Positions 1-63,847 of a stretch of DNA of 64,000 nucleotides are shown here, in pieces (position 1 is the first letter of the stretch; each line of letters starts with the position of its first letter). The stretch comes from Gemmatimonadota bacterium. Lineage in GTDB: Bacteria > Gemmatimonadota > Gemmatimonadetes > Gemmatimonadales > GWC2-71-9. The stretch spans positions 167,040 through 231,039 of the forward strand of contig JADJPD010000010.1 of the NCBI GenBank assembly GCA_016713435.1. Direction: 5' to 3'. The position numbers and the translations under genes are program-made. The notes under the pieces are model-generated. The model was not told where the DNA came from, made no database searches, and saw nothing but the letters and a program-made list of their open reading frames with translations.

Positions 1-522
1 GCCCGTCCCCGACTCGCCGGTGATGAGCACCCGCGCGTCGGTCGGCGCCACCTGCGCCACCAGCTGCCGCACCCGCGCGATCGGCTCGCTCGTCCCCACC
101 ATCTCGTCCCGGGGCGCCAGCGCCTGGCGCAGCGCCTTGTTCTGGGTCCGCGCCTTCCCGAGCTCGAGCGCCGCCCGCAGCGTCACCAGCACCGCCTCCG
201 GCGACAGCGGCTTCTCCAGGAACTGGAACGCGCCGAGCTGCGCCGCCCGCACCGCGTCGGCCAGCTGCGCCTTGCCGCTCATCATGATGACCGGCGTCTC
301 GAGCCCCCGCTCCCGCAGCTGCCGCAGCGTCTCGATCCCGTCGGGGCCCGGCGGCATCAGGAAGTCGAGGAAGATCGCCTCCGGCTCCAGCTTCTCGAGC
401 AGGATGAGCCCCGCCGACCCGTTCCCCGCCTCCTCCACCCCGAACCCCTCGGCGCGCAGCAGCGCCCCGAGCATCCGGCGGATGTTCGGCTCGTCGTCGA
501 TGATGAGCACGCGTGAGGGCAT
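1..522 (-). CDS. Sigma-54-dependent NtrC-family response regulator, N-terminal part (gene runs off the window start)
   Basis: Own minus-strand translation from ATG at 522: MPSRVLIIDDEPNIRRML...IFLDFLMPPGPDG (receiver domain with acceptor Asp) ...MVGTSEPIARVRQLV...ARVLITGESGTG (start of AAA+ Walker A). Lies 27 nt downstream of the kinase stop. Confidence 0.85.
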   Translation of the reverse strand, partial: MPSRVLIIDDEPNIRRMLGALLRAEGFGVEEAGNGSAGLILLEKLEPEAIFLDFLMPPGPDGIETLRQLRERGLETPVIMMSGKAQLADAVRAAQLGAFQFLEKPLSPEAVLVTLRAALELGKARTQNKALRQALAPRDEMVGTSEPIARVRQLVAQVAPTDARVLITGESGTG

Positions 523-549
523 GGCCGGAATCTACCTGTGGAGGGGCAC

Positions 550-1752
550 TCAGCGGGGTCGGCGCACCGGCAGGGTCACGACGAACGTGGCGCCGCCGCC
601 CGGCGTGTCCTCGAGGCGGATGCGCCCCCCGTGCGCCTCCACCGTCTGCCGCACCAGCGCCAGGCCGAGCCCCTGGCCGCCTTCCTTCCCGCCCGTCACG
701 TACGCATCGAAGAGCGTCTCGCGGAGCGCCGGCGCCACCCCCGGCCCATGATCCACGATCCGCACCTCGGCCCCGTCGGGCCCGAGCGGCGCGCAGCTCA
801 CCTCCAGCACCAGCGGCCCCGTGGCCGCTTCCACCGCGTTCCGGAGCAGGTTGCCGAACGCGCGCCGCAGCGGCTCGTAGTGCCCCGTGATCCGGGGCGT
901 CGTGGGGTCGAGCGTCAGCGTGGTGCGCACACCGCGCGGCAGGCTGGTCCGCACCAGCTCCGCCACCAGCTCGCCCAGGTCCACCTCGCTGGCCGGGCCC
1001 TCCGTCAGGCGGCCCATCTCGGTGAACTCCCGCGCCAGCTGCTCCAGCCGCGCCGACTCCGCCTGCAGCACCTCCAGCGACTCCTGCTGCTCCGGCCGGG
1101 CCGAGCGCGCGAGCGCCGACACCGCGAAGCGGATGGGCGTGAGCGGGTTCTTCATCTCGTGCGCCACCCGCCGCGCCACCTCGCGGAAGGCGCGGAGCCG
1201 CTCCGCCTCCAGCTGCCGCGTCCGCGCCTCCGCCAGGCCCCGCGCCATCTCCCGGAACGCCCCCCGCAGCGCCGCGAACTCCGGCGCGCCCCCCTCGCGC
1301 GGCTCCGCCGGCAGTGGCTCCTCCCGCTGGATGAGGCCGGTCCACTGCACCAGTTCATCAATCGGCTTGGTGAGCTGCCGCGAGAGATACCCGCCGAGCC
1401 GCACCGAGAGGTACAGCACCAGCGCCCCGAGCCCCAGGATGATGGCCGCGAGCGTCGGGGCGTAGTACGCCGCCAGCGTCTCGCTCCGCTGCACCCGCGA
1501 GAGCGCCTCGTTGAGCGCGCGGGTGTGCTGGGCCAGCGCCTCCCGCTCTCCCCGCGACAGCCGCGTGGAATCGATGGTCTGCACCAGCGCCCGGCCCGTC
1601 GCCGCCACCTCGGCCACGGCCTGGCGGGTGGTCTCCGCCGGGCTCGCGGGCGAGCGCACCGTGAGCGCCCACCCGATCACCGCGATGGCCGCCGGCACCG
1701 TGCCGAGGGCGATGAGCGCGTAGAGGATCCGCCGGCGGAAGGGGAGGGCCAT
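550..1752 (-). CDS. Sensor histidine kinase (2 TM + HAMP + HisKA + HATPase)
   Basis: ORF 550..1752, 400 aa. H-box [13 protein letters not shown]-box LLRNAVEA, G-boxes DHGPGV and [10 protein letters not shown]. Two hydrophobic segments flank a periplasmic stretch. Confidence 0.9.
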
Positions 1753-1755
1753 GTC

Positions 1756-18045: not shown

Positions 18046-18061
18046 AGCAATGTCGGTGCCA
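18046..18061 (-). promoter_or_regulatory. Candidate sigma-54 (-24/-12) promoter, minus strand
   Basis: The reverse complement reads TGGCACCGACATTGCT (one mismatch to TGGCACG-N4-TTGCW). Points toward the GT2 operon (start 17896), about 150 nt away. Confidence 0.6.
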
Positions 18062-18135: not shown

Positions 18136-19579
18136 GTGCAGCCCCTGAACGCGAAACTGGTCGGCATTCTCAAGCCGACGGCGGACGGATACCGGAACAT
18201 CGTTGCGGCGCTGATGCTCATTTCCATCAGCCGCCTGCACCAGCATTTCAAGTTCCTGAATCCGCTGCGCCCGGCCATGACGCTGGTGCTGCTTGCTGCG
18301 TTCTACGCGTTTGCCAACCCGAAGATGCTGTCGACCGCGCTGGCAACCAAGACGTGGGCTGCGCGCATGATCGCGGCCATCGGGATCATGGCCTGCATCT
18401 CGACGCCGTTCGGGATCTCCATGGGGAACTCGGGGACGTTTATCCTGTACGAGTACTCCAAGACCATCCTGTTCGCCTTTCTGGTGCTCTTCGCCATCCG
18501 CCAGGCCAGCGACCTCTTCCAGTTGGTCTGGGCCGTCGTGCTCGCCGGGGGGGGTCTGGCCTACCTCTCGCTCTTCGTCTTCAAGATCCGTGCGGCGACC
18601 AGCGACGGCTTCGCCCGGATCCAGAACGCCTACAGTTACGACTCGAACGACCTGGGATTCGTCTGCGTTCTCTGCCTCGTCCTCGCCTTGCTGGCCTGGC
18701 AGACCTCCGGTCCACGAGGCAAGACGGTCGCGACCGTGATCATGGCGGGACTCGGTGGTGCCATCGCCCGGACGGGTTCGCGCGGCGCGTTCCTCGCGCT
18801 GGTGGTGGTCGGCGCCGCCATGCTGGTGCTCGTGCGCGGTGTCTCGGTCGGGAAGAAAGTGGCCTTCGTCGGCGTGGTGATGGTGGGGCTGCTGTGGTTC
18901 GCTCCGGCGGGGTACTGGGAGCAGATGAACACCATGAGCAACCCGACGGAGGACTACAACTGGACCTCGGAGACAGGCCGCAAAGCCGTGTTCAAGCGCG
19001 GCATGGCGTACATGATGCAGTTCCCCATCGCCGGGCTCGGGATCGACAACTTCGAGCGCGCCGAGGGTATGCTAAGTGAGCGCGCCAAGGCGCAGGCGCT
19101 GGACCCGTCGTTGCCCGGCATCAAGTGGTCCGCTGCCCACAACTCCTTCCTGCAGGCCGGGGCGGAGATGGGTATCCCCGGCCTTGTCATCATGTGCATC
19201 ATGGTGTTCTCGCCGATCTTCATCTGTGCACGGCTGCGCAAGCAGATGAAGGGCTGGGCCGAGGGCGATGCCGAGCAGCGCTTCCTGTACTTCACTGCCC
19301 TCTACATGCCGGTGGCCTTCATTGGCTTTGGCGTGGGCGGGTTCTTCGTCTCGTTCGCGTACCTCGACCCCCATATACGTGCTGGTGGCGTTCATCGGCG
19401 GGCTTCAGCTTTCCTTTGAAGCTCGCCTGCGCAAGGAAGCGGCTTTGGGTACTGATGGCGCGGTCACCGCACAGGCCGCGTCGCAGTCAGCGCGGCGATA
19501 CCGGGGTGGTCTGCCCCCGGCAGGACCGCGTCAGCCGTCTCCGCTCCCGCCGCCAGTGATGTACCCGCGCGCGCAATGA
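18136..19579 (+). pseudogene. O-antigen ligase/polymerase-like (Wzy_C-type) membrane protein; frame break in C5 run 19368-19372
   Basis: ORF 18136..19419 (about 10 TM; ...RTGSRGAFLALVVV..., GLGIDNF..., AHNSFLQAGAEMGIPGL) continues as ...FAYLDP|IYVLVAFIGGLQLSFEARLRKE in ORF 19268..19579. Start codon uncertain (GTG 18136). Confidence 0.75.
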
Positions 19580-20492
19580 TGGTCCGAGCGACAACGAAGG
19601 CGGTGATGGAACGCCTGCTCGCTCAGGCCGGGCCCGCCGCCCTCTCGCGGCGGGCCTTCCGTCGCCGGGGGCTGGTGCTCGCCTACCACAACATCCTCCC
19701 CGCCGGCCAGGCCGCCCCCGCCGACCACTCGCTGCACCTGGCCGAGGCCACCTTCCGCGCCCAGCTCGACCTGCTGGAGCAGCACGCCCACATCGTCCCG
19801 CTCGCCGACTTGCTCGCCGGCAAGCTCATCGGCGAGGGCCCGTACGTGGCCCTCACCTTCGACGATGCCTATCGCGGCGCCGTCACGGTGGGCCTCCGCG
19901 AGCTGGCGCACCGCGGCCACCCCGCCACGCTCTTCGTGACGCCGGGCTGCCCCGGCGGCGGCGCCTTCTGGTGGGACCGCATCAGCGACGGGAAGACCGG
20001 CGGCCTCCCGCCGCCTTCCGCGCCCGCGCGCTCACCGAGGGCCGCGGTCGCGGCATCGACGTGCTCGGCCTCGCCGCGCAGGCCGGCCTCTCGGTGCTCG
20101 ACGTCCCGGCCCACGCGCTCCCCGCCAGCCTCGAGGAGCTGACCCAGGCCGCCCAGGCCCCGGGCCTGGTGCTCGCCGCCCACACCTGGACCCATCCCAA
20201 CCTCGCCGCGCTGCACGGCGCCGAGTTCGAGGAGGAGCTGCTGCGCCCCCTCACCTGGCTGCACCAGCGCTTCGACCGGGTGATGCCATGGATTGCCTAT
20301 CCCTACGGCCTCACCTCCCCCGAGGGCGAGGCCGCCGTGGAGCGGGCGGGCTACGAGGCCGGCTTCCTGGTGGCTGGCGGCTGGCTCCCCGAGGGCGGCT
20401 GGCCGCGGCTCCGCATCCCGCGCCTCAACATCCCCGCCGGCCTCAGCGAGGCGGGCTTCATCGTCCGGATCGCCGGCCTCATGGGCGCATGA
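19576..20492 (+). pseudogene. Polysaccharide deacetylase family protein; frame break ~20000-20012
   Basis: ORF 19576..20142 (LVLAYHNI..., VALTFDDAYRG..., PATLFV) -> ORF 19971..20492 (...AAHTWTHPNLA..., IAYPYGL...). ATGA overlap with the upstream gene. Confidence 0.75.
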
Positions 20493-21679
20493 CGCGGACG
20501 GTCCTCGTCACCGACGGCGAGCAGCGCGCCGCGCTGGCCGTCACCCGGAGCCTGGGCCTGGCCGGCCACCGCGTGCTCGTGGCCTCGGCCAAGGCGGCGC
20601 CGCTCGCCGGGGGCTCGCGCGCCGCCGCGGGGGAGTTCCAGGTCCCCGACCCGCTCCACGATCCCGCCGCCTTCGCGGCCCGCGTCGGGGCGCTGGTGCA
20701 GCAGGAAGGCATCGAGGCCGTGCTCCCCGTCGCCGAGCCGTCGGTGCTGGCGCTGCTCGAGTACCGCGACTGCCTGGGCACGGCGCGCTTCCCCTATCCC
20801 GACCTGGCCCGCTTCCGCGCCATCTCGGACAAGGCCGCGCTCCTCGCGGCGGCGCCCGCGCTCGGCATCGCGGTGCCCGCCCAGGTGCGCGTGGAGACGA
20901 AGGCGGACGCCGCCGCGCTCGACGCCGCCACGCTCCGCTTCCCCCTGGTGCTCAAGCCCGCCCGCTCCGTGAGTGGAGCCGACGGGGCCCGCGGCAAGTT
21001 CGGCGTGAGCCACGCGGCCACGGCCGCCGAGCTCGAGCGCCACTTGGCCGAGTATCCGGAGGCCGCCTATCCGGTGCTGCTGCAGCAGCGGGTGGTGGGG
21101 CCGGGCGTGGGGATCTTCCTGCTGGTGTGGGACGGCGAGACGCGCGCGGTGTTTGCCCACCAGCGCCTCCGGGAGAAGCCGCCGGCCGGCGGCGTGAGCG
21201 TCTACCGCGAGAGCATCCCCGCGGAGCCCACGCTCGTGGCGCGCTCGCGGGCGCTGCTGGACCGGTTTGAGTGGCAGGGCGTGGCCATGATCGAGTACAA
21301 GGTGGACGCCGCCACCGGCACGCCCTACCTCATGGAGATCAACGGCCGCTTCTGGGGCTCGCTCCAGCTGGCGGTGGACGCCGGGGTGGACTTCCCGCGG
21401 CTCCTGCTCGACGCCATGTTCGGCGCGCCGGCGGCGCCGCCCCCGGCGTACCGGCCCGGCGTCCGCAGCCGCTGGTGGTGGGGCGACGTGGACCACCTGC
21501 TGGCCCGCGTCCGGAAGAGCGACGCCCAGCTGGCCCTGCCGCCCGGCTCCCCCAGCCGGCTCCACTCGTTGCTCGACTTCCTCGTCCTCTGGCGCCCCGG
21601 CGACCGGAACGAGATCCTTCGGCTGGCAGACCCCGGACCCTTCTGGCGGGAGACACGCGCGTGGCTTCGGAGGGAGTAG
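20489..21679 (+). CDS. ATP-grasp domain protein
   Basis: Frame of ORF 20288..21679. MTRTVLVTDGEQRAALAVTRSLG..., FPLVLKPARS..., VLLQQRVVGPGVGIFLL..., GVAMIEYKVD...PYLMEINGRFWGS. Confidence 0.8.
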   Translation: MTRTVLVTDGEQRAALAVTRSLGLAGHRVLVASAKAAPLAGGSRAAAGEFQVPDPLHDPAAFAARVGALVQQEGIEAVLPVAEPSVLALLEYRDCLGTARFPYPDLARFRAISDKAALLAAAPALGIAVPAQVRVETKADAAALDAATLRFPLVLKPARSVSGADGARGKFGVSHAATAAELERHLAEYPEAAYPVLLQQRVVGPGVGIFLLVWDGETRAVFAHQRLREKPPAGGVSVYRESIPAEPTLVARSRALLDRFEWQGVAMIEYKVDAATGTPYLMEINGRFWGSLQLAVDAGVDFPRLLLDAMFGAPAAPPPAYRPGVRSRWWWGDVDHLLARVRKSDAQLALPPGSPSRLHSLLDFLVLWRPGDRNEILRLADPGPFWRETRAWLRRE

Positions 21680-21702
21680 CTCGCGGCCCCGGCCGCCTGG
21701 GC

Positions 21703-22449
21703 GTGGTGCACGTCCACAGCGGCTGGAGCCATGACGGCAAGGACACGCTGGAGGCGCTGCACGACCTCTCGCGCGGCCGCGGCATCCGCTTCGTAGGGCT
21801 CACCGACCACGCCGAGGACTTCACCGAGGCGCGCTTCCGCGAGTATCAGGCGGCGTGCCAGAAGGCGTCGTCCGAGCACGTGCAGCTCATCGCCGGCCTC
21901 GAGTACCGCTTTGCCGGCCTCAAGGGCCTGCACCTCCTGGCGCTCGGCATGGCCGCCTGGATGAACCCGGCCACGCCGGCCGAGTTCATCGCGGAGGCGC
22001 GGCGCGTGGCGCGGTTCACCATCGCGGCGCATCCCATCCTGTACCGCCACGAACTGCCCGAGGTGGTGGAGCAGGGCATCGACGCCATCGAGATCTGGAA
22101 CGCCAGCTACAACACCCGCTGGCTCCCCGACCCCCGCGCCATCGAGCTGCTCAAGCGGGTGCAGGCGAAGCGTCCCGAGGTCACCGGCATCGCCGGCCTG
22201 GACCAGCACGACGCGAAGAACGACCGCGAGACCCGCGTCCTCCTCCTCAAGGCCGACGAGTCCCTCGATCCGCTCGCCGAGCTCAAGGCCGGCCGCTACG
22301 TGAACCTGGGCCGCACCATGGAACTCGGCGCCTCCGAGGCCATGAGCCCCACCGCCCTCGGCATGCTGCACCTGGTGCGCTGGGGGTTTGATGGCGTGGA
22401 GCGGACCCAGGACAAGCTGACGCGGCTCCTGCGCGGGGATCCGCGATGA
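21703..22449 (+). CDS. PHP (polymerase/histidinol-phosphatase-like) domain phosphoesterase
   Basis: Frame of ORF 21271..22449. VVHVHSGWSHDG..., VGLTDHAEDF..., AAHPILY..., IEIWNASY. Start codon (GTG 21703) uncertain. Confidence 0.65.
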   Translation: MVHVHSGWSHDGKDTLEALHDLSRGRGIRFVGLTDHAEDFTEARFREYQAACQKASSEHVQLIAGLEYRFAGLKGLHLLALGMAAWMNPATPAEFIAEARRVARFTIAAHPILYRHELPEVVEQGIDAIEIWNASYNTRWLPDPRAIELLKRVQAKRPEVTGIAGLDQHDAKNDRETRVLLLKADESLDPLAELKAGRYVNLGRTMELGASEAMSPTALGMLHLVRWGFDGVERTQDKLTRLLRGDPR

Positions 22450-23565
22450 GCCGCCGGCTCCGGGTGCTGCACGTCATCCAGAACCTCCACTACGGCGGCA
22501 TGGAGCGGCTCTTCGCCGACATCGTGCGGCTGCTCGATCCGGCGGAGTTCGAGTCGCACGTGATGGTGCTCGGCTTTTTGGGGCACTTCGGCGAGGGGCT
22601 CGATAAGTACGCCACCATCCACCACGCCGTGAAGATGTCGCGCCTTTCGATGGTGCGGCCGGCCGGGCTCGCGGCGCAGATCCGCGCCATCGCGCCGGAC
22701 GTGGTGCACACCCACCAGGGCTGCTGGTACAAGGTGTCGCTCGCGGCGCGGATGGCGGGGGTGCCGTGGATCGTGCATACGGAGCATGGGCGGCAGAAGC
22801 CGGACCCGTTCATTGCGCGGACGGTGGCGCGGCTGGCGTCGGGGCGCACCCACGTGGTGGCGAGCGTGTCGGGCGCGCTGGCGGAGCACCTGAAGACGGC
22901 GGTGGGCGTGGACGGGCGCGCGGATCCGGGTGCTCACCAACGGCGTGGACACCGAGCTCTACCAGCCGGGCGGCGATCCCTGTCCCATCCGGAAGGAACT
23001 CGGCATCGCCGACGACACCCCGATCATCGGCAGCATCGGCCGGCTGGAGCCCATCAAGGGCTATGACGTGGTGGTGGACGCGTGGCTCAAGCTCCGCGAG
23101 ACGTGGCAGCGCGGCCCGCTCCCGGTGCTGGTGGTGGCCGGCGACGGCTCCGCGCGCGCCGATCTCGACGCGCGCCTGGCCGCCGCCAACGCCGGCCCCG
23201 GCGTCCGCCTCCTCGGCTGGCGGAGCGACATGACGGCGCTGCACGCCGCCTTCTCCCTCTTCACCATGGGCTCCCGGAGCGAGGGCACCTCGGTCAGCCT
23301 GCTCGAGGCCATGAGCGCGGGGCTCTGCCCCGTTGTCACCAACGTGGGGGGGAACGCCGCGGTGCTGGGCCCCGCGCTGCAGCACCGCCTGGTGCCCCCC
23401 GTGAACCCCGACGCCCTGGCCGCCGCCTGGACCGACGCCCTGACCAACGACGCCCGCCGCGCCGCCGACGCCCGCGCCGCGCGGGAGCGGGTGCTGGCCG
23501 AGTTCAGCGTGGGGGCGATGGTGCGGGGGTACGCGGCCATATATAAGGAGTGCCCGGCGCGATAG
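22446..23565 (+). pseudogene. GT4-family (GT-B) glycosyltransferase; frame break ~22915-22925
   Basis: ORF 22446..23066 (RVLHVIQNLHYGGMERL...) -> ORF 22930..23565 (RIRVLTNGVDTELY...GRLEPIKGYD...SEGTSVSLLEAMSAGLCPV, E-x7-E). Confidence 0.8.
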
Positions 23566-23656
23566 CGCTGGAGAATCACAGCGTGTTCACCATTGGCCCC
23601 GCGGGCAGTGCGCCTGCGGGGCCGGCTCATTTTGGGGTAGTCCCGAAACCCGAGTG

Positions 23657-24036
23657 CCAACGTCGTGACGCGACCGCCCCAGGTGCTTCCCGGAGTCACC
23701 GCCGCGGTGACGCACCCGGCCGGGTCACTTCCCGGGTTTGCCGCCGTGGTGACGGGCTCGGCCGGAGCCCTTCTCGGGTCCACCGGCGCAGTGTCGAACT
23801 CTGCCCGGGCACTTTCCGGGTCTGCCGTCGTGGTGTCGAGGCTCGCCCGGAGCACTTTCCGGGTCTGCCGTCCTGGTGTCGGGCTCGTCCGGCGCACTTT
23901 TCAGGTCCGGGAACGTGGTGGAAATCTCGCCGGAGCACTTTCCAGGTCCGCCGGCGTGGTGTCGAGGTCGACCGGAGGACTGCTCGGTGCGGCCGACGTG
24001 GTGTCCGGGTCGGCCGTTGCGCACATCTGGTTCATC
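23657..24036. repeat. Degenerate tandem repeat array, ~9 units of 40-43 bp
   Basis: Units start at 23657, 23699, 23741, 23783, 23825, 23868, 23911, 23951, 23993. Consensus ~CCGnCGTGGTGTCGAGGCTCGnCCGGAGCACTTTCCGGGTCTG. Each unit has two mini-palindromes (CGAG-g-CTCG; CCGGA-gcactt-TCCGG). Confidence 0.85.
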
Positions 24037-24351
24037 GGAGGGGTGCGGGGCGGTGCCGAGGAGTCGCGTGCGCCCAGCGGGTGGTCAGGGGCGTGGGCAT
24101 TGCGGAGCGGGGAGACCCCGACCTGAGACTTCATGCACCCCAGTGACGTGCCGGCCGGGCGTCCCGCGGCCGTTCAGGGGTGGAACGTTTTCGGGTGTTT
24201 TCGGGTGGAGTCCGGCGCGCGTCAGAGCGAGAAAATCACTTTTCGTGCGAGTTAGGCAATGCAGTCCCACGCCAGGCGCGCGAATCCTAACATGTTGCCG
24301 GGCAAGTCGTTAGCGCATGTTTATGCACGTTTTGCCCTCGTGAGGCGGACG

Positions 24352-24367
24352 TGGTATGCCATTTGCG
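24352..24367 (+). promoter_or_regulatory. Candidate sigma-54 (-24/-12) promoter
   Basis: TGGTATGCCATTTGCG with correct spacing. Lies ~107 nt upstream of ATG 24474. Confidence 0.5.
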
Positions 24368-24473
24368 TCCTCCCCCTCCTGCCGGGATGCGGCGCGGAGC
24401 ACGCTCCCGGTGATCAGGGCATCGTCTGCAGGGGTGCATGCGTGCCTGACCCGCTCCGCGCACGGAGGTGTGT

Positions 24474-25172
24474 ATGGCGATTCGGTCTTCCGTGCTGCTG
24501 AAGGTGGTCCAGCTCATCCTGGACTTCTTCGCAGCGCACCCGGAGATGAGCCCCGGGCTCACCGCGGCGCTGGCCAAGCTGAGGACCCTCGGCGAGACCT
24601 TGCGCGGGCTCACCACCACCACGCAGGCGGGGACGGCCCGCAGCCAGAAGGGGGCGGAGCGGTTCCTCGACCAGCAGCAGCAGCTCAAGTTCATCTTCCT
24701 GCAGCCGCTCGCCTCCCTCGCCCGGAGCGCGTACCGGGGCTTCCCCAAGCGGATCGCGGAATTCCGGATCGGGAAGCTGACCGACGACTCGCGGGAGGGG
24801 TTCCTCACCCGGTGCGACGCCATCCAGCTGGCGCTGGTGGCCAACCTCGCCGATTTCCTGGCGCTCGGCATGGACCCGGCGGTGCCGGACCAGTTCGCCG
24901 TGGCGCTGGCGGAGCTGCGGGCGCTGCCCGCCGAGGTGAATGGCGGGCGTCTGGCCCGCAAGCAGGCTCGGGGCGACATCGACCGGACGGCCGACCAGCT
25001 CATGGCCGTCATCCACCAGCTCGACGGCCTGGTGCGGCTCAAGTACCGGGACGACGTGGCGACCCTCGCGGCGTGGCAGGTGGCGCGTCACATCCCGTGG
25101 GCCAACCGGGCCACGGCCCCTGACACCCCGGCGACCGGCGCGGCGCCGGCGGGCGGGACCCCGGCCACCTGA
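24474..25172 (+). CDS. Hypothetical protein (232 aa, predicted all-helical, Pro/Thr/Ala-rich tail)
   Basis: ORF 24468..25172. GGAGG lies 5 nt upstream of ATG 24474. High-GC3 codon usage; no motif I recognise. Confidence 0.6.
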   Translation: MAIRSSVLLKVVQLILDFFAAHPEMSPGLTAALAKLRTLGETLRGLTTTTQAGTARSQKGAERFLDQQQQLKFIFLQPLASLARSAYRGFPKRIAEFRIGKLTDDSREGFLTRCDAIQLALVANLADFLALGMDPAVPDQFAVALAELRALPAEVNGGRLARKQARGDIDRTADQLMAVIHQLDGLVRLKYRDDVATLAAWQVARHIPWANRATAPDTPATGAAPAGGTPAT

Positions 25173-25191
25173 GCCGTCCTGCGGTGCACGC

Positions 25192-25236
25192 ATCGCCCCC
25201 GCTCCCGGGTCCGGGAGCGGGGGCGATGGTGTTTAT
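25192..25236 (+). terminator. Rho-independent terminator
   Basis: ATCGCCCCCGCTCCCGG-gt-CCGGGAGCGGGGGCGAT: perfect 17-bp stem followed by ggTGTTTAT. Confidence 0.75.
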
Positions 25237-25302
25237 GGGGGCTGGGGCGGGGGCTGTCACAGGCCGCTGGTAGCGTGTGTCATGCGCCCCAAGGAGGCAG
25301 GC

Positions 25303-26118
25303 ATGCCCTGGTTTCGGACACTCGTCCCGGAAGCCCACTATCACCAGCCCCAGTACGCGGAGGCCCTGTGGCCGGCGCTGCCGGAGTGCGGGACGTGGCT
25401 CGACCTCGGCGCGGGCAGCCGCATTCACGGCGGCTGGCTCGGGCACGGGCCGGAGGCGCTGCGGCAGCGGGTGCGGACGCTCGTGGGCGTGGACCTGGTG
25501 GCGCCGCACCTGCGCCAGCACCCGCATCTCACCGGCGGCGCGCTGGCGGAGGGGGAGACGCTGCCGTTCCGGGACGGCAGCGTGGACCTCGTGTCGGCCA
25601 ACATGGTTCTGGAGCACCTGACGGCGCCCGCGAGCGTGTTCCGGGAGGTGGCGCGGGTGCTCCGGCCGGGTGGGGCCTTCGTGTTCGTGACGCCGAACCG
25701 CGCGCACCCCGTGATCCGACTGCTGGCCCTGCTGCTCCGCCCGGGCGCGCGGCGGCTGCTGGCGCGGGTGGTGGAGTCGGGCCGCGGGGCGGACCGGGTG
25801 TTCCTGACGCACTACCGCGCCAACCGGGTGCTCGACCTGCTGCAGCTGGGGTGGGAGACGGGGCTCAACGTGGAGCGGCTGGTGCCGTTCTCGAGCCTGC
25901 CGATGTTCCCGCGGCTGCCGCCGCTGCTGGCGCTCGAGGCGGCGTGGATCCGGTGGTTTGCGCGGCCGGGGGGGTGGTATCCGGAGGGAGGGTCGAACCT
26001 GCTGGGGGTGATGCGGCGGGCAGTGGAGACCCACTCCCCCGCGGGGAGCCGCCGGGACGGCCCTCCGCGGGAGTCTGGTGGACAGGGCTACTTCGCGCTC
26101 ACCCGCACGGCGCCGTAG
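25303..26118 (+). CDS. Class I SAM-dependent methyltransferase
   Basis: Frame of ORF 24940..26118. AAGGAGG lies 6 nt before ATG 25303. WLDLGAGSRIHGG (motif I), DGSVDLVSANMVLEHL, VLRPGGAFVFVTPN. Confidence 0.8.
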   Translation: MPWFRTLVPEAHYHQPQYAEALWPALPECGTWLDLGAGSRIHGGWLGHGPEALRQRVRTLVGVDLVAPHLRQHPHLTGGALAEGETLPFRDGSVDLVSANMVLEHLTAPASVFREVARVLRPGGAFVFVTPNRAHPVIRLLALLLRPGARRLLARVVESGRGADRVFLTHYRANRVLDLLQLGWETGLNVERLVPFSSLPMFPRLPPLLALEAAWIRWFARPGGWYPEGGSNLLGVMRRAVETHSPAGSRRDGPPRESGGQGYFALTRTAP

Positions 26119-57847: not shown

Positions 57848-57863
57848 TGGCACGGCTTTGGCT
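57848..57863 (+). promoter_or_regulatory. Candidate sigma-54 (-24/-12) promoter
   Basis: TGGCACGGCTTTGGCT: perfect -24 box, -12 box TGGC instead of TTGC. Lies 46 nt upstream of ATG 57909. Confidence 0.45.
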
Positions 57864-63831: not shown

Positions 63832-63847
63832 CGGCACGGCCATTGCT
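63832..63847 (+). promoter_or_regulatory. Candidate sigma-54 (-24/-12) promoter
   Basis: CGGCACGGCCATTGCT (only the first T is mismatched). Lies 64 nt upstream of ATG 63911. Confidence 0.55.

Follow-up and report, generated by a model that had tools for sequence, protein, structure and literature searches.

A degenerate, non-coding repeat array with a 21-bp period upstream of a candidate sigma-54 promoter in an exopolysaccharide locus of Gemmatimonadota

The array described here lies in a Gemmatimonadota exopolysaccharide (EPS) locus, within a stretch of 64,000 nucleotides that was analysed as a whole and is called the window below. The locus is of the XrtA/PEP-CTERM type (TIGR03006 above cut-off) and encodes a histidine kinase and a sigma-54 response regulator. 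The upstream neighbour of the array is an exopolysaccharide glycosyltransferase operon, and the intrinsic terminator behind its GT4 gene forms the left boundary of the module; the terminator hairpin is also present in a related lineage (L004, at 340-370), where it aligns at 82%. On the other side, a conserved control region precedes the gene of a clade-restricted protein of 232 residues. This protein has no Pfam or NCBIfam match, carries no PEP-CTERM tail, and is rare: a search of 5.8 billion proteins gave only seven homologs, which are mostly encoded on short contigs (1-2.4 kb). Its AF2 model is all-alpha with moderate confidence (pLDDT 68.7), and no PDB fold matches the model at E<=0.001. 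The features of the module are as follows.

23593..23635, + strand: intrinsic terminator of the upstream GT4 gene/operon, a 14-pair GC-rich hairpin followed by CTCATTTTGG (terminator scan)
23634..23675, no strand: left edge unit u1, decayed (49-59% identity with the rest) and of doubtful membership in the array
23676..24011, no strand: core array of eight head-to-tail units (Tandem Repeats Finder, repeat search, register layout, identity matrix, periodicity against 1000 shuffles, unit alignment)
24012..24053, no strand: right edge unit u10, likewise decayed (48-60% identity with the rest)
24125..24137, + strand: distal conserved box GAGACTTCATGCA (three-lineage alignment, motif search)
24187..24206, + strand: perfect tandem 10-mer GTTTTCGGGT x2 (Tandem Repeats Finder, motif search, three-lineage alignment)
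24286..24327, + strand: promoter-proximal block CCTAAC..TTGCC..CAAG..GCATGTTTATGCA, conserved in the three-lineage alignment (also motif search)
24352..24367, + strand: candidate sigma-54 -24/-12 promoter TGGTATGCCATTTGCG (three-lineage alignment)
24368..24473, + strand: conserved 5' leader with two predicted hairpins (three-lineage alignment, consensus fold)
24474..25172, + strand: gene of the clade-restricted, all-helical 232-aa protein (GC3 0.95)

Tandem Repeats Finder (TRF) places an array of period 42 at 23726-23981, with 6.1 copies, 73% matches and a score of 228; overlapping rows of period 42, 83 and 85 together cover 23686-24003, and a repeat search gives start-to-start spacings of 42, 42, 43, 42 and 41. 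Laid out in register, the core units start at 23676, 23718, 23760, 23802, 23845, 23887, 23928 and 23970, and are 42, 42, 42, 43, 42, 41, 42 and 42 bp long. Pairwise identity reaches 91% (u5/u6), 84% (u5/u8) and 81% (u3/u5). The initial annotation, made from the letters of the window, had described nine units that decay towards the edges. The array is real and the decay is borne out, but the count is not: shuffled units score 51 +/- 4% identity and the edge units 48-60%, and since the edge units score so close to shuffled ones, the array is better described as eight clear units with one decayed unit at either edge than as a firm nine. The period of about 42 bp that had been given agrees with TRF, although it is not the basic one. 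Within every 42-bp unit there are two related halves of 21 bp, the first of type 2 (GnCCGGAGCACTTTCCGGGTC) and the second of type 1 (yGCCGnCGTGGTGTCGrGCTC); the true basic period is 21 bp, or two turns of B-DNA. The autocorrelation of the array is 0.553 at lag 42 and 0.424 at lag 21, and both values exceed those of all 1000 dinucleotide shuffles. The 24-nt unit core (<=3 mismatches) occurs three times in the 64-kb window, in the array only, against 0.00 expected. The whole array measures about 340-380 bp against a GC background of roughly 72%, with GC of at least 0.61 throughout the intergenic gap. It is a degenerate minisatellite, whose 21-bp unit has here differentiated into a two-part unit of 42 bp. 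A 1-nt frameshift in the neighbouring GT4 gene, at about 22913-22918, points to possible indel errors in the assembly, and the unit lengths of 43 and 41 bp may therefore be unreliable. The window array's own +1 and -1 units may be real or assembly errors.

The array is placed between the GT4 terminator and the conserved control region, 340-690 bp upstream of the -24/-12 candidate and, seen from the promoter, beyond two conserved 13-bp boxes. The distal box lies about 225 bp upstream of the -24 element, and its ACTTCATGCA varies little or not at all among the three aligned lineages; the second copy, at 24315-24327, is situated inside the promoter-proximal block. The gap holds two copies of the box motif GNNASTTYATRCA, and the remainder of the 64 kb a single one. 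The distal box is a candidate site for a regulator or enhancer-binding protein. The promoter candidate deviates by three mismatches from TGGCACG-N4-TTGCW. Such a match is not significant by itself, since consensus matches are not enriched in the window (82 against 99.7 expected); at the aligned position, GG and TGC are invariant in L001 (CGGCACGCCGATTGCA) and L004 (TGGCCTGAATTCTGCA). The position of the array upstream of this promoter, proposed earlier, is supported, and the promoter candidate itself now has the backing of a GG-N10-GC pattern conserved in two other lineages. The leader carries a GGAGG Shine-Dalgarno sequence at 24464-24468. The perfect 10-mer, present twice as had been reported, is confirmed by TRF (24187-24207) and resembles the type-2 core CTTTCCGGGT; it shows no conservation in the three-lineage alignment, being deleted in L001 and diverged in L004. 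Words like CTTTCCGGGT are not enriched outside the gap in the 64-kb window (60 matches against 51.6 expected). The three-lineage footprint of two 13-bp boxes and -24/-12 promoter, together with the conserved leader, represents a more immediately useful by-product of the analysis and is directly testable.

Array, control region and gene make up a module found in just three related lineages of Gemmatimonadota, namely the window, L001 and L004; conservation is thus thinly sampled, and the L001 copy is truncated by a contig end. In both relatives this site is again occupied by an array with a 21/42-bp period (autocorrelation 0.587 at lag 42 in L001 and 0.417 at lag 21 in L004, each beating 1000 of 1000 shuffles), and the array units are degenerate in all three lineages (62-78% matches by TRF). 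The L001 array is homologous to that of the window on the same strand (blastn E=6e-16; shared k-mers z=3.5-5.6). The L004 array shares no significant k-mers with the other arrays in either orientation (z<=1.8), while the 21-bp period is kept. The L004 array may be inverted, as hinted at by its AT skew (+0.46 in the L004 core, -0.37 in the window array) and by a few shared words (GTTTCCGG, GACGTGTT on the opposite strand); PWM, profile and k-mer tests were non-significant in both orientations. Similarity within an array exceeds that between lineages. In L001, 15 units stand in perfect 21-nt register despite 89 mismatches to the consensus at 315 positions (28%). Flanking non-coding DNA shows 8-18 substitutions per indel, so that 5-11 indels are predicted for L001 and the probability of none is 1.5e-5 to 0.007, provided that the units diverged where they stand. 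Over their shared part, four L001-lineage samples agree in copy number and sequence. Intergenic DNA of about 790-910 bp is kept in both full-length lineages. The neighbouring unconstrained spacer is scrambled and indel-rich across all three.

Presence of the array at syntenic loci of relatives, whose absence had been named as one mark of a neutral minisatellite, holds for these two lineages but not for more distant ones: relatives reached via GT4 homologs conserve the operon and lack the gap, the array and the gene. A search of genome and metagenome contigs by alignment to the downstream protein gave no further syntenic loci, and the 26-base conserved promoter pattern had no match in JGI metagenomes. 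A pattern of two units, run against 185,579 species genomes, recovered an array on the syntenic contig of the L001 MAG alone, the other 14 matches being without array signature.

Next, we weighed what kind of product or site the array could represent. That it codes, or recently coded, for a heptad-repeat protein, possibly as a pseudogene and with the window copy disrupted by assembly indels, would suit a period that is a multiple of 3, the indel errors that the window probably has, and an ATG in the conserved box that faces the array on the - strand. Additionally, 16 heptads stay in frame in L001, where the three codon positions have a GC of 0.79/0.55/0.86, and the NCBI record of L001 calls a 184-aa partial gene over the array. 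Read from the + strand, the putative heptad is [PA]-x-D-V-V-x-x, and read from the - strand it is xHHVGGx. Against this, the codon positions of the window array hardly differ in GC (0.67-0.81) and those of L004 (0.73/0.71/0.63) give no coding-like frame, compared with a GC3 of 0.92-0.99 in genes; the arrays show no autocorrelation at lag 3 or 6, unlike coding controls; and variability between units is not concentrated at third codon positions (unit-column entropy 1.02/0.99/0.99 in L001). Across the three lineages there is no consistent frame, start, Shine-Dalgarno sequence or stop and no shared peptide: ORF ends differ, and peptides from the conserved ATG are unrelated beyond 3-4 residues. Codon use is also wrong, the only coding-like frame having Phe codons TTT 3 : TTC 0, while the genes of the window have 11:166 and L001's own downstream gene 0:11. 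The tail of the L001 ORF is compositionally non-coding (0.70/0.71/0.64) and overlaps the promoter boxes, and the product of the L001 + frame has no homolog among 5.8 billion proteins. The ORF of the window's + frame, compared with 1.84 billion representatives, hit unrelated repeat proteins only (Ig-like adhesins, and heptad proteins with ARAVSGQ and SAQMVTG), which we treated as repeat-on-repeat artefacts. The initial annotation had doubted a repetitive protein, and this counter-evidence agrees with it, including the lack of an ORF shared by the three lineages and of third-position variability among the L001 units; its remark that all six frames are open is wrong, as three have stops inside the array. 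The protein-coding reading is largely refuted, and we hold it very improbable. Still more improbable is an RNA, that is, a small RNA or UTR with serial hairpins or a GGA-type sponge like CsrB/RsmZ. In its length (about 350 nt) and in how many short motifs it repeats, the array does resemble sponge RNAs, and central units could form a 5-bp hairpin, yet the structured RNA that had been suggested finds no support in the fold energies, which for either strand of two arrays equal the shuffled ones (z of -0.94/+0.16 for window +/- and +1.01/+0.84 for L001). There is no hairpin covariation and no Rfam family, the sole Rfam 15 match, to a miRNA and lying outside the array, being due to chance (E=0.034; 26 bits, where the gathering threshold is 77). 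No sigma-70-like promoter was found in 23400-24600, the sole terminator found is on the + strand upstream of the array, and the opposite AT skews of window and L004 make the motif orientation inconsistent between lineages.

The two palindromes per unit, CGAGgCTCG and CCGGA-N6-TCCGG, had been regarded as binding sites of a dimeric protein. If they were bound by a dimeric regulator, for example the response regulator of the locus, the array would be a multi-site enhancer; the locus does have a sigma-54 activator gene, with a conserved -24/-12 promoter downstream of the array. Both dyads are clear in the central window units, but in those only: neither the homologous units of L001 nor the L004 array has them. 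Over 16 units, 65% of cells show hairpin pairing, compared with 59.7% after shuffling, and the covariation score is reached by 85 of 500 shuffles. The part of the unit that is conserved is a direct repeat, CCGnCGTGGTG / GyryTTyCCGG, and the array motif was not found upstream of other genes of the window. Like a sigma-54 upstream activator sequence, the array lies upstream of a -24/-12 element, though at a greater distance than is typical. The two 13-bp boxes, conserved in three lineages and nearer to the promoter, already look like regulator sites and are the better candidates for activator binding. We consider an array of dyad sites improbable.

No bacterial description of such an array was found in the literature. 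A REP/BIME-like element, another earlier suggestion, does not fit a single copy in the 64-kb window that folds no more stably than shuffled sequence (z -0.94 to +1.01). Mycobacterial MIRUs are intergenic minisatellites/VNTRs dispersed at dozens of loci per genome, which sit inside operons, often with short ORFs overlapping the flanking stop and start codons. The array resembles them in its head-to-tail units in the 40-100-bp range, its intergenic site in a high-GC bacterium, and its degenerate copies with lineage-specific unit variants; unlike MIRUs, it is single-copy in the 64-kb window, follows a terminator, has no consistent ORF and keeps a strict 21-bp sub-period. Plasmid iterons are direct repeats of 17-22 bp in 3-7 copies, spaced by about 21-22 bp and bound by a Rep initiator. 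In all three lineages the array likewise consists of contiguous, direct, non-palindromic repeats at a spacing of two helical turns, which therefore puts all sites on one DNA face. It differs from iterons in its 8-16 copies, its place in a chromosomal EPS locus and the lack of a Rep-like gene, the 232-aa neighbour having neither a Pfam match nor a significant match to a solved fold; there is no A+T-rich unwinding region either, because GC does not fall below 0.61 in the gap, and PLSDB holds no plasmid similar to the array. Curved DNA with phased A/T tracts assists looping at sigma-54 promoters in place of IHF (nifLA/glnA literature), and in the known cases it spans tens of bp between activator sites and promoter. 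Here, too, A/T patches are phased at about 10.5 bp upstream of a -24/-12 candidate, and predicted curvature exceeds that of shuffles in two arrays and marginally in L004, but the array is distal to the presumed activator boxes, extends over about 350 bp and has weak tracts of 2-4 A/T.

It is known from PEP-CTERM loci that activator and sigma-54 motifs can lie in large upstream regions (PMC1569441). In Proteobacteria, a single, occasionally doubled 17-nt motif 1 ending in TTTACA precedes a sigma-54 motif 2, with a spacer of about 63 nt (Haft 2006, PMC1569441); the earlier statement that no element of the present kind has been described in such loci thus stands. Our locus shares with those regions the XrtA/PEP-CTERM-type EPS setting, an unusually long non-coding region before a single gene, a -24/-12 candidate promoter, and a sigma-54 response regulator with kinase. 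It differs in having a 350-bp tandem array and a downstream protein without PEP-CTERM tail. The likely counterparts of the Haft motif are the two 13-bp boxes rather than the array.

To return to the array itself, its A/T content is periodic at 10.5 bp in the window (z 5.3), L001 (2.3) and L004 (3.7), compared with -0.9 in the neighbouring control, and at 21 bp in the window (13.4) and L001 (8.5). Using a curvature model with approximate wedge parameters, the predicted ratio of end-to-end distance to contour length is 0.815 in the window (0.944 +/- 0.039 shuffled) and 0.849 in L001 (0.954 +/- 0.028), in each case with 0 of 200 shuffles as low, and 0.887 in L004 (0.939 +/- 0.042), where 8.5% of shuffles are as low and the difference is not significant. 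Under a second wedge model, the corresponding shares of shuffles are 7% (window), 0.5% (L001) and 7% (L004). Phasing and curvature are partly non-independent, because any 21-bp tandem repeat gives 10.5-bp harmonics and some predicted curvature. We tentatively favor a reading of the array as a helically phased, curved DNA segment with an architectural or protein-loading role, at a probability of roughly 0.4. The main rival, which we also regard as quite possible, is a functionless and slowly decaying minisatellite, which would go back to a 21-bp unit multiplied by slippage or unequal recombination in the lineages' common ancestor. Partial re-homogenisation in each lineage, present drift and an inherited period would complete that account. 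Neutrality is consistent with the degeneracy of the units (62-78% matches), with their greater similarity within arrays than between lineages, as in concerted evolution, and with an array that is unique in the 64-kb window and whose motif does not recur elsewhere in it (60 against 51.6). It also agrees with distant syntenic loci that lack the array and indeed the whole module, with palindromes that are not conserved, and with a phase relative to the promoter boxes that is not conserved (the distance to the distal box, taken modulo 21, leaves 2 for the window and 15 for L001). What argues against neutrality is that about 350 bp are kept at the same place in three lineages next to a scrambled, indel-rich spacer, that 15 diverged L001 units contain 0 indels where 5-11 are expected, and that the four L001-lineage samples are alike over their shared part. 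Moreover, the units should by now be too diverged to slip efficiently, so continued homogenisation is hard to explain.

According to the architectural reading, the array would act as DNA, without a product, and helical phasing would matter rather than the exact sequence. Because the short A/T patches within the roughly 72% GC background are spaced at 10.5 and 21 bp, small bends would add up on one helix face, and the result would be an intrinsically curved segment of about 350 bp upstream of the promoter. Equivalently, the array may be viewed as a one-sided platform of weak direct-repeat sites that could be coated or wrapped by protein. Such a segment might affect transcription by helping or limiting enhancer-promoter looping at the sigma-54 promoter, or by insulating this promoter from the operon that ends just upstream. 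What tells against this reading is the array's distance of 340-690 bp from the promoter, with the two likely regulator boxes in between, its unconserved phase relative to the distal box, and the +1 and -1 units of the window, if these are real. A bolder proposal, which we regard as rather unlikely, is an undescribed class of cis-element in which selection keeps the two-turn period and the length of about 350 bp while the unit sequence turns over. It would form a phased, curved or protein-wrapped scaffold that sets the geometry of, or insulates, a sigma-54 enhancer-promoter unit bordering an exopolysaccharide operon, and the co-inherited 232-aa helical protein might read it. Should the phasing be under selection, the array would be a bacterial regulatory architecture with conserved period and free sequence upstream of a sigma-54 promoter, with a bearing on enhancer-promoter geometry in GC-rich bacteria and on the control of biofilm/EPS loci in wastewater Gemmatimonadota. 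If it is only a decaying minisatellite, it matters little, and its main effect is the practical one that short-read assemblies break there. Three of the contigs from relatives end inside the array.

The ~908-bp gap between the end of the GT4 gene (23565) and the ATG of the next gene (24474) holds a tandem array, which is a real, single-locus, non-coding minisatellite of 21/42-bp period. Tandem Repeats Finder (TRF) detected a period of 42 at 23726-23981 (6.1 copies, 73% matches, score 228), with additional overlapping calls (periods 42, 83 and 85) together spanning 23686-24003, and no other array scoring >70 in the 64-kb window. A repeat search gave unit spacings of 42, 42, 43, 42 and 41, of which the 43- and 41-bp lengths may be unreliable because the adjacent GT4 gene carries a 1-nt frameshift. 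Pairwise unit identity is 91% for u5/u6, 84% for u5/u8 and 81% for u3/u5, u3/u6 and u6/u8, while the edge "units" at 23634-23675 and 24012-24053 show 48-60%, against 51 ± 4% for shuffled units. None of 1000 dinucleotide shuffles reaches the autocorrelation measured for the array at lag 42 (0.553) or at lag 21 (0.424). These data confirm the array placed in this gap by the initial annotation; its nine ~42-bp units, however, become eight clear units with two decayed edges, and the period of 42 stands with each unit composed of two related 21-bp halves. The array begins past the end of the upstream transcription unit, since an intrinsic terminator lies directly 3' of GT4:

23593-23635: intrinsic terminator, 14-pair hairpin and T-run
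23676, 23718, 23760, 23802, 23845, 23887, 23928, 23970: starts of the array units, in register

The 232-aa protein encoded downstream (24474-25172, +) has only seven homologs among 5.8 billion proteins, whose contigs represent two additional lineages. One comprises contigs L001, L002, L003 and L005 from four samples, with identical upstream DNA over the shared part; the other, contig L004, encodes a homolog 72% identical and extends from the 3' end of GT4 across the entire gap to the gene. In each lineage a periodic array occupies the equivalent site, consisting of 16 consecutive 21-mers in L001 (TRF period 21 and 42) and of a more degenerate 21-bp repeat at ~400-715 in L004 (TRF period 21 at 568-646). 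In all three arrays, autocorrelation peaks at lags 21, 42, 63 and 84 beat 1000/1000 shuffles, and these peaks are absent from adjacent non-coding DNA. The array of the window and that of L001 are homologous in the same orientation (blastn E=6e-16, several registers), with shared 6- to 8-mers at z=3.5-5.6 and a profile match of 0.458 (null maximum, 0.442). Word sharing between the L004 array and these two is not significant on either strand (z<=1.8), and L004 keeps the period and the site; period and position are therefore conserved where sequence is not. Contigs with more distant GT4 orthologs of 60-64% identity (L006-L009) retain the Wzy-deacetylase-ATP-grasp-(PHP)-GT4 operon and have no gap, array or 232-aa gene downstream, so that array, control region and gene constitute one lineage-restricted module. 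Sequence comparison of the only three lineages available thus shows array position and period to be conserved within a narrow Gemmatimonadota clade. Additionally, the A/T skew of L004 400-715 is opposite (+0.46 in the core vs -0.37 in the window), and GTTTCCGG- and GACGTGTT-type words lie on the opposite strand; the L004 array may thus run in the opposite direction to those of the window and L001, the statistics being significant in neither orientation.

The control region was delineated from A2, an alignment of the three lineages 3' of the array:

24125-24137: distal box GAGACTTCATGCA, conserved in A2
24286-24327: block CCTAAC..TTGCC..CAAG..GCATGTTTATGCA, conserved in A2, with the second 13-nt motif copy
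24352-24367: candidate -24/-12 element, GG and TGC invariant in A2
24368-24473: 5' leader of ~105 nt, conservation higher than in the promoter, GGAGG ahead of the start codon

The 64 kb contain three copies of the 13-nt motif, one of them outside the gap; the two in the gap, GAGACTTCATGCA (24125-24137) and GCATGTTTATGCA (24315-24327), are 190 bp apart, and both are conserved and aligned in L001 and L004. These two boxes are the best candidates for where the sigma-54 activator of the locus, or some other regulator, would bind, and the array lies beyond both, 340-690 bp from the promoter. Since the sigma-54 consensus is not enriched in the window (82 matches vs 99.7 expected), the promoter call rests on conservation, which upholds in three lineages the -24/-12 candidate previously proposed at 24352. 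Other matches with one mismatch are found at 18046-18061 (-), 63832-63847 (+) and 57848-57863 (+). The leader at 24368-24473 has two predicted hairpins with compensatory changes in 6/32 pairs across only three sequences, matches no Rfam family, and may have a regulatory role. Haft et al. 2006 (PMC1569441) reported that PEP-CTERM genes of Proteobacteria are preceded by long regions in which a sigma-54 motif is accompanied by an activator motif, in some cases present more than once. Unlike at the present locus, no tandem array is described there, in agreement with the earlier remark that no such element was known from PEP-CTERM loci.

A repetitive protein had been judged improbable, and the coding analysis agrees. 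The GC frame plot is flat over the gap (0.62-0.83 in every phase; GC3 of the flanking genes, 0.95-1.00), and GC by phase in the L004 array is 0.73/0.71/0.63. Autocorrelation peaks at multiples of 21 only, with lags 3 and 6 at background; coding controls peak at many multiples of 3. Stops occur inside the array in three of the six frames, all of which had been described as open. The sole coding-like case is L001, in which 16 heptads follow one another in frame without a stop, at a GC of 0.79/0.55/0.86 by codon position. Against coding, its unit variability is equal across codon positions (entropy 1.02/0.99/0.99); its Phe codons are TTT 3 : TTC 0, compared with 11:166 in the window genes and 0:11 in its own downstream gene; and its ORF runs 73 codons further with non-coding composition (0.70/0.71/0.64), over the conserved promoter boxes. 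On the minus strand, the conserved box GACTTCATGCAC contains an array-facing ATG that opens three different, sequence-unrelated repeat frames; a Shine-Dalgarno comparable to the GGAGG of the 232-aa gene is missing before this ATG and also before the GTG at 23665, which opens the + ORF. A search of 5.8 billion proteins with the L001 array product gave no homolog at E<=0.01, and the window array ORF, searched against 1.84 billion representatives, gave only five matches, all unrelated repeat proteins. With no peptide common to the three lineages in six-frame translations and no codon-position bias in the unit variability of L001, a conserved ORF through the array was rejected, and a coding remnant is very unlikely. 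P0131 and P0132, matches to the array + frame, contain long runs of 7-aa repeats (ARAVSGQ, SAQMVTG) that probably stem from 21-bp DNA repeats elsewhere.

The structured RNA, palindromic sites and REP/BIME-like dispersal suggested initially also fail to find support. Folding of the window and L001 arrays is no more stable than that of dinucleotide shuffles on either strand (z = -0.94, +0.16, +1.01, +0.84), and Rfam gave nothing over 22500-25500 but a chance miRNA match outside the array; a function as RNA is extremely improbable. In A4, an alignment of 16 units from window and L001, pairing of the CCGGA-N6-TCCGG hairpin is seen in 65% of cells vs 59.7% in shuffles, and its covariation score is reached by 85/500 shuffles. 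CGAGgCTCG, whose loop would be 1 nt, is essentially limited to a single unit. The shared feature of the window and L001 units is a direct repeat, with CCGnCGTGGTG in one half-unit and G-y-r-y-TT-y-CCGG in its partner, and palindromic regulator sites are accordingly unlikely. The unit core is confined to the array within the 64-kb window; a 24-base two-unit pattern has 15 matches in 185,579 species genomes, with the array signature only at the L001 contig, and no PLSDB plasmid is similar. The array belongs to none of REP/BIME, MIRU, iteron, CRISPR or any Rfam family; its geometry is iteron-like, and in kind it is similar to MIRU-type VNTRs. As a bacterial intergenic tandem repeat it is of a known kind; the conserved period and register without conserved sequence are worth testing.

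Two readings of the array have to be weighed. We tentatively favor, at a probability of about 0.4, that it acts as DNA: helical phasing would yield a curved or protein-coated architectural segment, which would affect looping at the sigma-54 promoter or insulate the promoter. A functionless decaying minisatellite is the main rival and only slightly less probable. The units are degenerate and lineage-specific, as in a neutral satellite under concerted evolution, the motif does not recur elsewhere in the window, and the array-to-distal-box distance modulo 21 is 2 in the window vs 15 in L001, so the phase differs. Against mere decay stands the retention of ~350 bp at the equivalent site in three lineages beside a spacer only 51-58% identical, with 7-10 gap events per 260 columns. 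Moreover, 15 units of L001 keep register with 89/315 mismatches to consensus and zero indels, where 5-11 would be expected at the 8-18 substitutions per indel found locally (P(0) 1.5e-5 to 0.007). Because a reading frame is excluded, helical phase is the fitting constraint on this register, 21 bp being two helical turns. A/T periodicity at 21 bp reaches z=13.4 in the window and 8.5 in L001, and at 10.5 bp z=5.3 (window), 2.3 (L001) and 3.7 (L004), against -0.9 in a neighbouring control. Two wedge models (Bolshoy-Trifonov and De Santis parameters) predict for each array a helix axis with stronger curvature than in dinucleotide shuffles, marginally so for L004, although phasing and curvature are partly automatic for any 21-bp repeat; a ratio of 0.82 corresponds to a ~125-degree arc.

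Predicted curvature of the arrays (end-to-end/contour)
Window: 0.815; shuffles 0.944 ± 0.039; 0/200 as low; second model 7%
L001: 0.849; shuffles 0.954 ± 0.028; 0/200 as low; second model 0.5%
L004: 0.887; shuffles 0.939 ± 0.042; 8.5% as low; second model 7%

The window represents an XrtA/PEP-CTERM-type exopolysaccharide locus, encoding an XrtA-system polysaccharide deacetylase (TIGR03006, 321.8 bits vs a cut-off of 276.2), Wzy_C, ATP-grasp, PHP-domain, several GT2 and GT4, flippase-like and sulfatase proteins. The 232-aa protein is 100% identical to a "Gemmatimonadetes bacterium" MAG protein (locus tag IPK12_15090). The frameshift in GT4 (22446-23565, TIGR03088-like) is a clean one at ~22913-22918, splitting the gene into two frames between residues 150/152 of the homolog P0015; either GT4 is a pseudogene or the assembly has an indel error here, and single-base length differences elsewhere, including the two odd unit lengths, are doubtful for this reason. 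The deacetylase/ATP-grasp/PHP ORFs (19456-22449) overlap, and their lengths are unusual (228, 579 and 392 aa, against 302, 403 and 261 aa in L007), which suggests more frameshifts in the window assembly. In the L001 ortholog of the 232-aa gene, 1069-1297 is a perfect 114-bp tandem duplication (38 aa). From 916 on, L001 differs at many positions from L002, L003 and L005, with the 900 nt upstream identical; judged by this comparison, the pattern is a recombination mosaic within one lineage. Finally, the product of window 1-1755 (-), with best partial matches to NtrX, AtoC, NtrC and PrsR, is probably the activator of the sigma-54 promoters of this EPS locus.
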